From NCBI GenBank assembly GCA_024398715.1, contig JAKSIP010000011.1, positions 880 to 64,879 on the forward strand: 64,000 nucleotides of DNA, read 5' to 3'. The notes under the pieces are model-generated. The model saw only the letters and a program-made list of their open reading frames with translations. It had not been told where the DNA came from and made no database searches. Each line of letters begins with the position of its first letter. Position 1 is the first letter of the stretch. The DNA is from Bacteroidaceae bacterium. GTDB lineage: Bacteria; Bacteroidota; Bacteroidia; Bacteroidales; Bacteroidaceae. Below are positions 1-6,531 of this stretch, piece after piece. Made by a program: the position numbers and the translations under genes.

Positions 1-2984
1 CGCAGAATTCATTCGGCCTTGGGGCCAACACTATGGTTGCCGCAACCGAGAACAAACAGGATAACTTCCTTCAGTTTAAGAACCTGTGCGGCTATGTCGT
101 AGTTAAATTATACGGAGAAGGGACAGTGACTTCCATAAAACTGGAGGGTAACGATGGGGAGAAAATCAGCGGCAAGGCCGATGTTCAGGCTGCCTTTGGC
201 ACTCTTCCTTCAGTAACAATGTCAGAAGAAGCAACCACTTCAATCACACTTGATTGCGGAGATGGCGTAGCTCTTGGCACAACCGCTGAAACTGCCACTG
301 AATTCTGGTTATGTGTACCTCCAGTAACATTCAGCAAGGGCTTTACGGTTACAGCCACCAAGGACGATGGCTGGCAGATGATCAAGAGCACGTCGTCATC
401 AAAGGAAGTTGTCAGAAACACAAAGAATGCCCTGACTCCGATTGAGGCGGTGTTTGATCAAAAGCCCGACAATAGTGCTGCTCTTGCGCAAGAACGAGAA
501 GCATTAATAGATTTCTACAATGCACTTGATGGTGACAATTGGATTCACAACGAGAACTGGTGTTCTGACAAACCTATGAATGAGTGGTATGGCGTTGATA
601 CCGATGGGAATGGTTTTGTTCGCTCGTTATGGTTAAACAGTAATAATCTAGCGGGTAATTTACCAGAGGCTTTATCTGCTATGAGACATCTTGAAGAAAT
701 ACATTTAAGGTATAACGCTATCTCTGGTGGGATTCCTTCTTGGATCGGGGCAATTACCAAGCTTAGTTGTATTGACTTGGACTATAATCCTTTGGGAGGC
801 ATTATACCCGTTGAGATAGGTAATTTAATTGAGTTGGAGTATTTAGAACTATGCGAGACCGAGTTGACTGGAAGCATCCCCCAATCTATAGGGAATTGTA
901 AGAAACTAAAAGTTCTAGAGTTATCTTGGAATCATTTGTCAGGTGAAATACCCAATTCAATCACAGATTGCCAGGAAATGACGACTTTGTATCTACAATT
1001 TAACTATTCTCTGACAGGTCAAATTCCCAATGATATTGGGAAATTAGTAAAACTTAAAGACATGGCACTGGAATACAATTCTCTTTACGGACCAATTCCA
1101 GAGTCACTGTTCGATTTAAGTGAGATGACCCGATTAGGTTTGGAGAATAACTCTTTATCCGGGAGAATTCCAGATAAATTTAACAGAATGCCAAATCTTA
1201 CTCAAATATATCTTAGACACAACAATTTTTCCGGAGAGATTCCATCTTCGCTACAACAACTTGAGCATGTTGAGGCATTGTATCTATCCAATAATAAGTT
1301 GTATGGATCTGTGCCTGAATGGATGACAAAATTTATTGTCCCTGGCGGCGGATTAGACCTTATTAACAATCTGTTTTCAGGGAGAATACCAGACGGAATA
1401 ATCAATCATCCTGAGTGGCCTAATATATGGTATAGTATAGCTGGCTTTAATAATTTCACGATGGACGATGTCATTATTCCGGCACCTGATTTTTCTTTAA
1501 CAGATATTGATGGTAACCCACTTGACTCTGAAGTCGAATATGCGAAGCATAAATATATCATCCATTTTCAATGGGCAAGTTGGTGTGGTAAATCGGCTTT
1601 GCTCTTCCCGAAGATAATCAGCTTATATGAAGAATATAAAGACTCCGGATTGGATGTCATTGGTGCGTGCTATGAAGATATATCTATTATTCAGGATAAA
1701 ATACAAGAATATGGAATGCCTTGGAGGACGTATCAACAATCAAACTCGAACAAAATCAGACATTCAGAGTATATGAATTTTGATGAGTTCTATCCTGATT
1801 TTGACGTCCCCGTTATTACAGTATTTGATTGTTCAACTAAAATGGTTTGTTATTGTAATGCGTTGACTGATATATCTAAACTTGAGGGTTTTATCAGAGA
1901 GAAGTTCGATGATAATCCTACAGAACCCGTATACGTTTCTGTGGACTATTCAAAGGATGGAACTGTCAGGACGATAAAGGATCACTCTGGGAATCTTAAT
2001 ATAGTATTTATGGGTGACGGCTACTCTGACAGAATGATAGATGATGGTACGTATGATAGCGTAATTGATAGGGCGGTTGATGCCTTCTTTATGGAAGAGC
2101 CTTTCAAGAGTAATAAGGAACTATTTAATATCTATTCGGTTAATGTCGTTTCAACAAATGAGGGCATTTCTGAGACGGGAGAAACTGCTTTAGGAACTTA
2201 TTATGATGGAGGAACATTAGTCGGAGGAAAAGACGGGAGAGTGTTTTATTATGGTATGAAAGCTATTTCTTCTGATGATGTGGATAATACGGTTTTCGTA
2301 GTTCTAATGAACCAGGACGCTTATGCTGGAACATGCTATATGTATTACCCATCTGCTTGTGATTATGGTAGTGGAGCAGCTATCGCCTATTTCCCGACAA
2401 GCAGCGACGAAACTACCTTCAATGGTCTTGTCTCCCACGAGGCCGGTGGTCACGGATTTGCAAAGCTGGGAGATGAATATGCCTACGAATACATGGGCGC
2501 TATACCATATGGCGAAATGGAGAGCACAAAGCAGATGGAACCATACGGCTGGTATAAGAACGTTGACTTCACCTCAGACCCGACGCAGGTTAAATGGAGC
2601 AAGTTCCTGAGCGACGAGCGTTATGCCAATGAGGGACTCGGATGCTTTGAGGGAGGATTGACCTATTGGAGCGGGGTATGGCGCCCGACCGATTACTCGA
2701 TTATGCGCTACAACACCGGCGGATTCAATGCACCGAGCCGTGAGGCTATCTGGTACCGCATCCACAAACTGGCGTACGGCGAGAGCTGGCAGTATAACTA
2801 CGAGGATTTCGTGGAGTACGATGCCATTAACCGCACACCTGCCGCTCAGGCTGCAAGCAGAGCAAAGGTGAAAGCAGCCGCTGCCGCACGCAAGGGTAAG
2901 CCGTTCCAGCCGCTCCACGAGCCTGTCGTAATAAAACACAGTTGGAAAGATGCCGTTAACAATTCCGGCAAAGACGGACGATGA
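1..2984 (+). CDS. Multidomain surface lipoprotein, paralog A (5' end upstream of window): fimbrillin-like domain / plant-type LRR / thioredoxin fold / peptidase M64-like
   Basis: The frame of track ORF 33..2984 is open from nt 3. The residues QNSFGLGANT before the listed M align with paralog B, so the true start is off-window. 24-residue LxxLxLxxNxLxGxIP repeats span about nt 480-1410. A Trx-like module reads IPAPDF...WASWCGKS (1572-1595). The zinc motif HEAGGH is at 2436-2453 and the stop at 2982-2984. Confidence 0.85.
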   Translation, partial: QNSFGLGANTMVAATENKQDNFLQFKNLCGYVVVKLYGEGTVTSIKLEGNDGEKISGKADVQAAFGTLPSVTMSEEATTSITLDCGDGVALGTTAETATEFWLCVPPVTFSKGFTVTATKDDGWQMIKSTSSSKEVVRNTKNALTPIEAVFDQKPDNSAALAQEREALIDFYNALDGDNWIHNENWCSDKPMNEWYGVDTDGNGFVRSLWLNSNNLAGNLPEALSAMRHLEEIHLRYNAISGGIPSWIGAITKLSCIDLDYNPLGGIIPVEIGNLIELEYLELCETELTGSIPQSIGNCKKLKVLELSWNHLSGEIPNSITDCQEMTTLYLQFNYSLTGQIPNDIGKLVKLKDMALEYNSLYGPIPESLFDLSEMTRLGLENNSLSGRIPDKFNRMPNLTQIYLRHNNFSGEIPSSLQQLEHVEALYLSNNKLYGSVPEWMTKFIVPGGGLDLINNLFSGRIPDGIINHPEWPNIWYSIAGFNNFTMDDVIIPAPDFSLTDIDGNPLDSEVEYAKHKYIIHFQWASWCGKSALLFPKIISLYEEYKDSGLDVIGACYEDISIIQDKIQEYGMPWRTYQQSNSNKIRHSEYMNFDEFYPDFDVPVITVFDCSTKMVCYCNALTDISKLEGFIREKFDDNPTEPVYVSVDYSKDGTVRTIKDHSGNLNIVFMGDGYSDRMIDDGTYDSVIDRAVDAFFMEEPFKSNKELFNIYSVNVVSTNEGISETGETALGTYYDGGTLVGGKDGRVFYYGMKAISSDDVDNTVFVVLMNQDAYAGTCYMYYPSACDYGSGAAIAYFPTSSDETTFNGLVSHEAGGHGFAKLGDEYAYEYMGAIPYGEMESTKQMEPYGWYKNVDFTSDPTQVKWSKFLSDERYANEGLGCFEGGLTYWSGVWRPTDYSIMRYNTGGFNAPSREAIWYRIHKLAYGESWQYNYEDFVEYDAINRTPAAQAASRAKVKAAAAARKGKPFQPLHEPVVIKHSWKDAVNNSGKDGR
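78..478 (+). repeat. Direct repeat copy 1 (401 bp, identical to 3508-3908)
   Basis: Base-by-base comparison by eye with an offset of 3430 nt found no mismatch. Mismatches resume at 62, 71 and 77 upstream and at 479 downstream. Confidence 0.9.
2448..2683 (+). repeat. Direct repeat copy 1 (236 bp, identical to 5995-6230)
   Basis: Offset is 3547 nt. Identity starts inside the HEAGGH codons and ends at 2684 (c) versus 6231 (t). Confidence 0.9.

Positions 2985-6531: not shown

Follow-up and report, generated by a model that had tools for sequence, protein, structure and literature searches.

Tandem mosaic lipoproteins of a Bacteroidaceae bacterium joining plant-type LRRs and a thioredoxin fold to a variant M64-type metallopeptidase domain

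At the start of the DNA analysed here, a 64,000-nt stretch of a Bacteroidaceae bacterium contig (the window), two large genes are neighbours on the same strand, and this locus raises the question of what kind of protein they encode and whether the parts in which they differ could set the target of an attached protease. The ORFs of these genes, A and B, together occupy positions 1-6531. The preliminary description had assigned one four-module order to both, which was borne out by Pfam, PDB searches and AlphaFold/Foldseek: a lipobox is followed by a type-V-pilin-like beta domain, 11-12 plant-type LRRs, a thioredoxin fold and an M64 peptidase domain. The features are as follows.

<1-2984, forward strand: gene A, truncated at its 5' end by the window edge, ORF open to the edge, 993 codons visible
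3-458, forward strand: gene A, type-V-pilin-like beta domain, C-terminal two thirds, ending in TPIEAVFD
492-1472, forward strand: gene A, LRR N-cap (EREALIDFYNAL...WYGV) and 11 plant-type 24-residue LRRs
1473-1931, forward strand: gene A, TlpA/ResA-like thioredoxin-fold module, WCGKS at the active-site position, without CxxC
1932-2828, forward strand: gene A, M64-type metallopeptidase domain (HEAGGH 2436-2453; GDEY 2469-2480; Met-turn SIMRYN 2697-2714)
2829-2984, forward strand: gene A, C-terminal tail, a conserved Ala/Lys helix and then a Pro-rich part (KPFQPLHEPVV...SW)
2985-3021, forward strand: A-B junction of 37 nt, kept in L002
3022-6531, forward strand: gene B, 1169 aa
3022-3075, forward strand: gene B, signal peptide and lipobox (LLLAGC), acidic D/E coming next
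3076-3888, forward strand: gene B, type-V-pilin-like two-sandwich beta domain (invariant basic K49 at 3166-3168)
3922-5010, forward strand: gene B, LRR N-cap and 12 irregular plant-type LRRs
5011-5472, forward strand: gene B, thioredoxin-fold module, WCPCIS at the active-site position, without CxxC
5473-6375, forward strand: gene B, M64-type metallopeptidase domain (HEAGGH 5983-6000; GDEY 6016-6027; Met-turn 6244-6261)
6376-6531, forward strand: gene B, conserved C-terminal tail

The full-length product of gene A has 1130 aa, as seen in the identical NCBI protein P0368, and is named merely "M64 family metallo-endopeptidase" by NCBI. An exact-sequence look-up found exact copies of both genes in the NCBI assembly GCA_024500545.1 only. 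The ORF of gene B spans 2950-6531, and the ATG at 2950, the NCBI-annotated start, is probably not the true one; position 3022 was preferred, since the lipoprotein signal MKKIIGLICFATLLLAGC begins there and the homologue in L001 starts likewise. In L002 the same 37-nt junction also links two such genes head to tail. Promoter-like and terminator-like sites were no more frequent than in shuffled sequence.

A lipobox had previously been visible for copy B only (LLLAGC). That of gene A falls outside the window, yet it was found in P0368 as LMVSC-AKDD. Acidic residues follow the lipobox in A, in B and in the homologues; its Cys was kept in 51/53 aligned homologues, and a lipobox-like N-terminus was found in 101/127 representatives. 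By the sequence rules for lipoprotein export in Bacteroidota, on which any such inference leans, A and B most likely sit at the cell surface.

The beta-rich domain that follows had been called fimbrillin-like, a view supported by its predicted structure, without a Pfam match to the domain; PF13149 (Mfa_like_1) was undetected in B, and among the 120 homologues listed, about 20 carry this annotation. With Foldseek, the AlphaFold model (pLDDT 86) matched the Bacteroides "cell adhesion" proteins 3T2L, 3UFI and 4K4K, as well as Mfa3 (5NF4) and BF2867 (4H40), with a probability of 1.0 but TM-scores of only 0.30-0.49, and it also matched Mfa2. The modelled domain has the two-domain beta fold of type V pilins. 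Position 49 of B, located 31 residues past the lipidated Cys, was R or K in 53/53 sequences; it lies after the first strand, where type V pilins are processed, and is a candidate processing site. Type V pilins and Bacteroides adhesins (Mfa3, Mfa2, BF1858, BF2867 and the LRR protein BT_0210, 4ECN) have in common with A and B the lipobox, the two-sandwich beta fold, an invariant Arg/Lys about 31 residues past the Cys and C-terminal cargo domains. They differ in that no pilus anchor or stalk genes were seen downstream of A and B within the window or beside the genes of the relatives, and that TM-scores are only 0.4-0.5.

Pfam LRR families matched both proteins (E 1e-23 to 1e-26). The units are of the 24-residue LxxLxLxxNxLxGxIP type (consensus unit LxxLxLxxNxLxGxIPxxLxxLxx). 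Where about ten plant-class repeats had been proposed, 11 were counted in A and 12, less regular and often without the conserved Asn, in B, and the closest solved relatives in the PDB search were plant LRR receptor kinases (E down to 7.5e-111). The same repeat class is present in the ectodomains of the plant receptor kinases GSO1, FLS2 and PEPR1 and in XopL/XopAE/XopAC of Xanthomonas; unlike these, A and B are devoid of a kinase, a transmembrane helix and a type III signal. For the LRRNT_2-like cap that had been anticipated, the results were mixed: Pfam LRRNT_2 was undetected even at E up to 10, and the clade profile aligned the cap with the FLS2 N-cap. In NCBIfam there were sub-threshold matches only, to LRR effectors (XopAE, XopL) and to ResA.

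The assignment of a thioredoxin fold was supported by sequence and by structure. AhpC-TSA (Pfam cutoff 26) scored 27.1 bits in A and 33.7 bits in B; of the expected Redoxin hits, the one in B reached 28.2 bits and the one in A, with 23.1 bits, stayed under the 26.6-bit cutoff. The first half of the Trx+M64 AlphaFold model (pLDDT 89.2, pTM 0.77) matched ResA, TlpA-like and DsbE structures with target TM-scores of 0.7-0.8 (Foldseek). Hence A and B share the fold with TlpA/ResA/DsbE (target TM-score up to 0.8, AhpC-TSA barely over threshold) but not the CxxC. Neither CxxC nor a peroxidatic Cys active site was present in WCGKS of A or WCPCIS of B, and the homologues had one Cys or none at that position. 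Since CxxC is absent or degenerate clade-wide, a redox role of this module is unlikely.

Peptidase_M64 (Pfam PF09471, gathering score 26) matched A with 76.7 bits and B with 70.4 bits, covering profile positions 8-199 of 302 only. The model retrieved 4DF9, 9QDI, 3P1V, 9EKK and 9QDH (E 5e-14 to 3e-12, probability 1.0; Foldseek) and also 9I4Z, and it displays the metzincin-like catalytic fold of M64. The proposed M64 homology was therefore confirmed in both sequence and fold, the catalytic residues being present on alignment. The statement that HEAGGH is typical of M64 turned out to be wrong, as the family motif is HEXXHXXXGXXD, with His, His and Asp as ligands and Glu as base (PMC12402451). The motif of the two proteins, HEAGGHGFAKLGDEY, departs from it in that Glu and the second His are separated by one residue more, and in the alignment to 3P1V and 4DF9 HEAGGH stands opposite HEF-GH, a one-residue insertion. 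HExxxH, in the clade-specific form HExxGH, was found in 246/247 clade members. One member had reverted to HECGH, which suggests that both spacings are tolerated. The inserted residue places the His pair of the zinc helix five residues apart, and a regular helix would not put both on one face. Six-residue HExxGH/HExxxH motifs bind the catalytic zinc in dipeptidyl peptidase III (DPP III, M49) and TldD. DPP III has the same HEXXGH with Gly before the second His, a convergent likeness in the motif only, the enzyme being cytosolic and of an unrelated fold and family; it indicates that the six-residue spacing can support catalysis.

H352, E353, G356, H357, D364, E365, Y366 and the Met-turn M441 were invariant in 72 sequences. 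The Asp keeps the +7 spacing from the second His and matches D322, a ligand in BF3526 (PMC12402451), and the Met-turn SIMRYN aligned with CRMRTN of 4DF9. The second zinc site of BF3526, formed by E323, C398, C409 and C412 (PMC12402451), has been lost: the Glu of DEY is retained, C398 is aligned to Ser, and the 20 residues after this Ser are free of Cys. Taken together, the sequences suggest a zinc metallopeptidase of the form HExxGH-x6-D, in which the Glu would serve as general base, and with a Met-turn.

BF3526 (B. fragilis) and BACOVA_00663 (B. ovatus), of M64 cluster CL-I (4DF9, 9QDI, 3P1V), are also Bacteroidales lipoproteins with the same metzincin-like fold. BF3526 was the best structural match (E 5e-14), having the Glu base, the +7 Asp ligand, the DEY Tyr and the Met-turn in common with A and B, but at about 18% identity and with HEFGH and a Glu+3Cys second zinc site instead of HEAGGH and no second site. 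In these two proteins a beta-sandwich M64_N gates the site, whereas in A and B the pilin-like, LRR and Trx modules precede M64 and the whole protein has three times their size. The founding M64 member, the IgA protease of Thomasclavelia ramosa (ThomasA/IgAse; 9QDH, 9EKK, 9I4Z), has the same catalytic fold and is a modular surface protease whose non-catalytic domains recognise the substrate and project the M64 domain, a role that the modules of A and B may play as well. It differs in being Gram-positive and sortase-anchored, with other accessory domains and the canonical HEXXH, and its IgA specificity is not transferable.

The comparison of A with B revealed a mosaic with two conserved tracts.

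1-508, paired with 3431-3938, forward strand: recombination/conversion tract 1, 97% nt identity, 100% including third codon positions over about 360 nt
2435-2987, paired with 5982-6534, forward strand: recombination/conversion tract 2, 91.5% nt identity, 100% over the first ~250 nt

The shift of the copy offset from 3430 to 3547 nt was confirmed exactly. The pattern of conserved ends around a diverged LRR-Trx centre was real, but the divergence extends into the catalytic domain and takes in its first half: some 170 aa at the N-terminus of M64 belong to the centre (39-50% aa identity), and the conserved C block opens at nt 2435/5982, one base ahead of the HEAGGH codons. Identity at third codon positions reached 1.00 for the flanks and ~0.33 for the centre; synonymous sites were up to 100% identical at the ends and saturated in the centres, and flank identity graded from 100% down to ~87%. 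GC3 was 0.49-0.52 for the N block, fell to 0.30-0.35 across the centre and rose to 0.60-0.62 for the C block (housekeeping genes, 0.45-0.54). The same breakpoints recurred against L001 and L002, the same N and C blocks flanked unrelated BspA-type LRR_5 centres in L001, L002 and P0242, and the centre of B recurred in P0241 behind an unrelated N domain. The recurring breakpoints around unrelated centres, the differing GC3 and the contrast between flanks and centre indicate that modules have been exchanged by recombination, in line with the exchangeable centre suggested beforehand. A local archive of silent donor cassettes was rejected, as searches of the 64 kb with both genes (tblastn, blastn) gave just the two copies, and so was a site-specific shufflon or invertible promoter, no recombinase being found among the scanned neighbours.

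The two proteins belong to a Bacteroidales clade of about 1,200 clusters at 50% identity (E <= 1e-30). Its relatives of gut origin include Candidatus Cryptobacteroides and contigs with names suggesting herbivore-gut metagenomes. The implied rarity of the architecture did not hold: LRR+Trx+M64 was carried by 62/127 representative clusters at 50% identity from metagenomes, 23 of the 62 sharing the N domain. It had been foreseen that the architecture might prove common and already characterised; the build is indeed common in metagenomes, and no member is characterised. No paper was found linking M64 to LRRs or to HEXXXH/HEXXGH, the sole co-occurrence being an M12B motif. A conserved operon partner was rejected, since the neighbourhoods of the relatives are unrelated between genomes. 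Some relatives have a pilin-like-BACON-Omp28 lipoprotein upstream, or a BACON/Big_2 protein.

We propose, with a probability of roughly 0.6, that A and B act as zinc peptidases at the cell surface and are directed to their target by an exchangeable binding module. From the domain identities, folds, motif conservation and mosaic, which are established, we infer surface exposure, catalysis, LRR-directed specificity and the substrate. Both proteins would be tandem paralogues within a large uncharacterised clade of modular lipoproteins. After export and lipidation at the lipobox Cys, the pilin-like beta "pedestal" would show the protein on the surface, where the plant-type LRR solenoid may bind a ligand, either a protein or a peptide. 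The redox-inactive thioredoxin-fold module might assist in capture, much as substrate is bound by the inactive b' domain of protein disulfide isomerase; the C-terminal M64-fold domain would then cleave or trim the captured ligand. What sets A and B apart is the binding module together with the substrate-facing N-terminal half of the catalytic domain. The near-identity of the pedestal and the zinc-helix/C-lobe would be maintained by gene conversion or homologous recombination, and recombination at these conserved flanks could swap whole centres among paralogues and genomes.

Other readings have to be weighed against this one. A and B might also be true type V pilin-class subunits, cleaved at the invariant Arg/Lys, released from the lipid and mounted at a pilus tip as a zinc protease with a targeting cassette reprogrammed by recombination; such an arrangement is improbable. 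Were it true, LRR-Trx plus the substrate-facing catalytic half, set between two fixed flanks, would form a cassette-exchange system for protease specificity. The M64 domain might instead be a non-catalytic folded head and the proteins LRR adhesins, as the replacement of HEXXH by HExxGH and the loss of the Cys ligands of the second zinc site (compare PMC12402451) would allow. The usual cargos of the N-domain family, the pure binders Lcl_C, LRR_5 and LRR_4, point in the same direction. Dead enzymes, however, normally lose catalytic residues, whereas here H, E, H, D, Y and the Met-turn are all invariant and the motif persists throughout nearly the whole clade; as HExxGH is moreover active in DPP III, such pseudo-proteases are unlikely.

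It is very unlikely that A and B are dedicated immunoglobulin A proteases whose LRR module docks onto IgA, in spite of their membership of Peptidase_M64 and the gut origin of relatives. BF3526, a Bacteroides enzyme and the only other characterised one in M64, leaves intact IgA uncut (PMC12402451), so that the IgA link of the preliminary description is unsupported. IgA is cut by the T. ramosa enzyme alone, which belongs to a different cluster (Bacillota) and acts via its own Fab-binding domains, and the identity to either enzyme is ~18%; close relatives with unrelated BspA-type LRR centres count against one fixed target. The least probable explanation is a metagenome-assembly artefact, in which the tandem and its near-identical blocks would stem from chimeric joining or from the collapse of repeats. 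The DNA does come from a MAG, and L002, a 3.5-kb contig, breaks exactly in the repeated C block, which indicates that assemblers struggle there. Nevertheless, both ORFs are intact, the identical 37-nt junction is found in the independent assembly L002, the breakpoints recur in independent genomes and proteins, and the flank identity is graded, not that of a single pasted block.

To our knowledge, IgA proteases fall into only three families; M64, one of these, had just one characterised member until 2025 and keeps HEXXH in every cluster according to recent structural papers. The clade of A and B departs from this rule through HExxGH and the loss of the second zinc site, and combines protease, ligand-binding solenoids and a pilin-like pedestal in one chain. 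The locus alone resolves no long-standing question; it makes accessible to experiment how a six-residue motif might hold zinc within a metzincin-like fold and how bacterial plant-type LRRs might capture a substrate. If active, these proteins would give gut Bacteroidales an abundant and targetable set of surface proteases and would be a natural case of protease specificity re-dealt through module recombination.

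The window opens with two same-strand ORFs, which fill its first 6.5 kb:

Gene A: 5′ end open at the window edge, stop at 2984, + strand, 993 codons visible.
Second ORF: 2950-6531, + strand, first 24 codons overlapping the end of gene A.
Gene B as taken here: 3022-6531, + strand, 1169 aa.

The start of gene B was set at 3022 because a textbook lipoprotein signal, MKKIIGLICFATLLLAGC, begins there, as does the homologue in the related locus L001; the homologue in L002 agrees. In NCBI's gene calls for the source assembly, gene B begins at the ATG at 2950 (1193 aa), which creates a 35-nt overlap with gene A and buries the signal peptide. 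The missing N-terminus of gene A was supplied by an NCBI protein from a Bacteroidaceae bacterium MAG (P0368, 1130 aa, named 'M64 family metallo-endopeptidase'), 100% identical to gene A over the queried centre and carrying its own lipobox, LMVSC-AKDD. Directly 3′ of gene B (6901-7587, + strand) lies a gene for a 228-aa lipoprotein (lipobox MLAMTSC) with a sub-threshold Lcl_C/DUF1566 match (24.9 bits, cutoff 34.9). The remainder of the window holds ordinary chromosomal housekeeping genes (adenine deaminase, GcpE, PurE, RpoN, PEPCK, SecDF and a gyrase/topoisomerase IV subunit A homologue). A 1035-aa ORF at 48105-51212 (- strand), with a hydrophobic signal-like N-terminal stretch and no Pfam family above threshold, gave a faint match (21 bits, cutoff 27.7) to Peptidase_M26_N, a family covering the N-terminal part of IgA1-specific metalloendopeptidases, and contained no HExxH motif.

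The observation of tandem LRR, thioredoxin and M64 lipoproteins in the preliminary description was confirmed with four corrections, and the Pfam families it had anticipated (LRR, AhpC-TSA/Redoxin and Peptidase_M64) were found in that order in both proteins. The first ~290 residues gave no match in Pfam or by PDB sequence search. The AlphaFold model of this N domain (53 homologues, pLDDT 86) was an all-beta two-sandwich, and its best structural matches were the Bacteroides 'putative cell adhesion' lipoproteins 3T2L, 3UFI and 4K4K, together with Mfa3, BF2867 and Mfa2; a type V pilin/fimbrillin fold is thereby predicted. Its homologues mostly bear other C-terminal cargos, namely Lcl_C/DUF1566 (a frequent one, and the family faintly matched by the 228-aa lipoprotein), BspA-type LRR_5 and LRR_4, and Mfa_like_1 was recorded in about 20 of the 120 listed. 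The 24-residue LRR units, LxxLxLxxNxLxGxIP (11 in A; 12, less regular, in B), had plant receptor kinases as their best solved relatives (GSO1, E 7.5e-111), in agreement with the proposed plant-type class. The expected LRRNT_2-like cap had no match in a Pfam LRRNT_2 search and was aligned with the FLS2 cap by a clade profile. The thioredoxin module has a genuine thioredoxin fold, its model matching ResA/TlpA-like structures (target TM-score up to 0.8). A redox function seems unlikely, since neither A (WCGKS) nor B (WCPCIS) has a CxxC, and the rest of the clade lacks it too.

The M64-domain model (pLDDT 89.2, pTM 0.77) matched BF3526, BACOVA_00663 and the T. ramosa IgA protease with E values of 5e-14 to 3e-12. 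HEAGGH had been regarded as typical of the family, which was incorrect: the M64 motif, stated in PMC12402451 to be kept by all clusters, is HEXXHXXXGXXD, and alignment to 3P1V and 4DF9 placed HEAGGH against HEF-GH, one extra residue. HE[ASTV]xGH was present in all 120 closest database proteins listed, and the six-residue spacing in 246 of 247 clade sequences, so that it is no local accident; the Asp at +7 from the second His was kept. The lone exception, HECGH in the 586-aa protein P0345, has the canonical five-residue spacing and is explained either by natural reversion or by a sequencing error. In BF3526, zinc is held by H311, H315 and D322, with E312 as base, and a second zinc site is formed by E323, C398, C409 and C412 (PMC12402451); A and B, in contrast, have the six-residue motif and lack the Cys ligands. 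This altered motif and lost second site could speak for an adhesin built on a dead protease. Such a reading is improbable, given that every catalytic residue was invariant in a 72-sequence alignment, in which H, E, G, H, D, E and Y, as well as the Met of the Met-turn, showed no variation. Moreover, DPP III (M49, HEXXGH) and TldD (HEXXXH) are active with six-residue zinc motifs like that of A and B. HExxGH is therefore read as a probable functional variant and not a dead site. A Pro-rich C-terminal tail (6445-6500, gene B aa 1142-1160; 2898-2953 in gene A) is conserved, with consensus FxPxxPPVVxxxSW and pLDDT ~90 in the model; a T9SS C-terminal domain was rejected as its identity. Since BF3526 prefers cleavage next to proline, the tail might act in auto-inhibition or in docking.

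Codon-by-codon comparison of A and B divided them into near-identical ends and a diverged centre:

A 132-~490 / B 3562-3920: 100% identity, including third positions.
A ~2430-2690 / B ~5980-6240: 100% identity, including third positions.
Stretches flanking these blocks: 87-98% identity.
Centre: 14-50% amino acid identity, third-position identity ~0.33 (saturated).

On its 3′ side, the N block reaches as far as the LRR cap (A 508 / B 3938). The diverged LRR/thioredoxin centre described earlier was upheld and its limits revised: since the C block begins at the HEAGGH codons, one base 5′ of them (A 2435 / B 5982), the variable cassette comprises the LRR, the thioredoxin module and roughly the first 170 residues of the peptidase domain. 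The same two breakpoints were found between B and L001 and between B and L002. The modules assort independently: P0242 and L001 carry B's N and C blocks (88-98% amino acid identity) around an unrelated BspA-type LRR_5 centre; in P0241, the centre shared with B (70-88%) follows an N domain unrelated to that of B (21-27%); and P0277 shares its centre with A (64% overall, windows of up to 88%), while its ends are more distant. L002 opens in the last part of one such gene and continues through an identical 37-nt junction into a second, and head-to-tail arrays therefore occur outside this genome too. L002 (JAZLJS010000067.1, 1-3485) was binned in a Lachnospiraceae MAG, yet its gene is of Bacteroidales type, with end blocks 82-90% identical to gene B in nucleotides; the contig starts and stops in the repeated C block and is probably mis-binned and broken at the repeat. 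GC3 was 0.49-0.52 in the N block, 0.30-0.35 in the centres (492-2432 and 3937-5979) and 0.60-0.62 in the C blocks (2433-2984 and 5980-6531), with 0.45-0.54 in the window's housekeeping genes; this mosaic would fit either segments with separate histories or GC-biased conversion acting on the homogenised blocks. No further copies or fragments of A or B were found in the window, nor a recombinase among the scanned neighbour genes. Ordinary homologous recombination or gene conversion, with the conserved flanks as starting points, would account for the exchange most simply.

At E ≤ 1e-3 the M64 domain alone returned 2,829 clusters (50% identity), and 1,232 at E ≤ 1e-30. Among 127 newly returned cluster representatives (median 1085 aa), 62 combined plant-type LRR, thioredoxin and M64, 23 of them also with the same N domain; 24 placed the N domain and M64 around another centre, and 101 had a lipobox-like N-terminal signal. 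Other recorded partners of the M64 domain are LRR_5, BACON and Mfa_like_1. By these counts, the four-module order is frequent in metagenomes. Close relatives came from Candidatus Cryptobacteroides MAGs and metagenome contigs with names suggesting herbivore guts. Among the papers searched, none joined M64 with LRRs, and database names for the clade proteins are generic at most. Hence, the claim that no characterised protein has this order stood, and the supposed rarity did not; the architecture is common in sequence databases, uncharacterised and not categorically new. Just upstream of the M64 genes in L008 (4373-8236) and L009 (41-3130), a large lipoprotein combines the same pilin-like N domain with BACON and Omp28 (in L009 with a Thioredoxin match overlapping the Omp28 region), and in L001 (1864-3093) a BACON/Big_2 protein precedes the M64 gene; modular surface lipoproteins thus appear to be a recurring neighbourhood in several relatives.

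An assembly artefact is extremely improbable as the origin of the tandem, the junction and breakpoints recurring in independent assemblies. A protease at a pilus tip would suit the lipobox, the fold and an invariant basic residue. An Arg/Lys processing site directly behind the first strand is familiar from FimA and Mfa1. Position 49, 31 residues past the lipidated Cys and likewise directly behind the first strand, was Arg or Lys in every one of the 53 sequences aligned, matching the layout described for type V pilins (bioRxiv 10.1101/2024.11.15.621889). Nevertheless, no anchor or stalk genes were seen downstream in the window or beside the relatives' genes, and a pilus-tip position is unlikely. 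A dedicated IgA protease, whose sole basis is the family name, is very improbable. Of the two M64 enzymes characterised, one recognises IgA Fab via accessory domains; the other, in sharp contrast, trims only exposed N-termini near proline and leaves intact IgA uncut (PMC12402451), so IgA should not be assumed as the target.

Taken together, A and B are best described, on sequence and model evidence, as M64-clade peptidases with a non-canonical HExxGH site inside a recombining pilin-LRR-thioredoxin architecture. The proteins would be exported by Sec, lipidated and flipped to the cell surface; the acidic residues behind the lipidated Cys fit the Bacteroidota lipoprotein export signal. There the pilin-like domain may serve as a pedestal, and the LRR solenoid would capture a protein or peptide ligand, perhaps jointly with the inactive thioredoxin fold, a role that has its precedent in PDI, whose b′ domain is redox-inactive; the M64 domain would then cleave or trim the ligand. 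The earlier interpretation of surface proteases aimed by an exchangeable LRR was partly supported, centre exchange being seen in P0242, L001 and P0241. In the T. ramosa enzyme, the protease N-lobe holds the edge strand of a beta-sheet, with which substrate pairs as it enters (PMC12415215). Because the recombining cassette includes this lobe, binding module and substrate cleft would, by analogy, co-vary as a single specificity unit. An M64 clade with HExxGH would surprise a metalloprotease specialist, and clear experiments follow from it.
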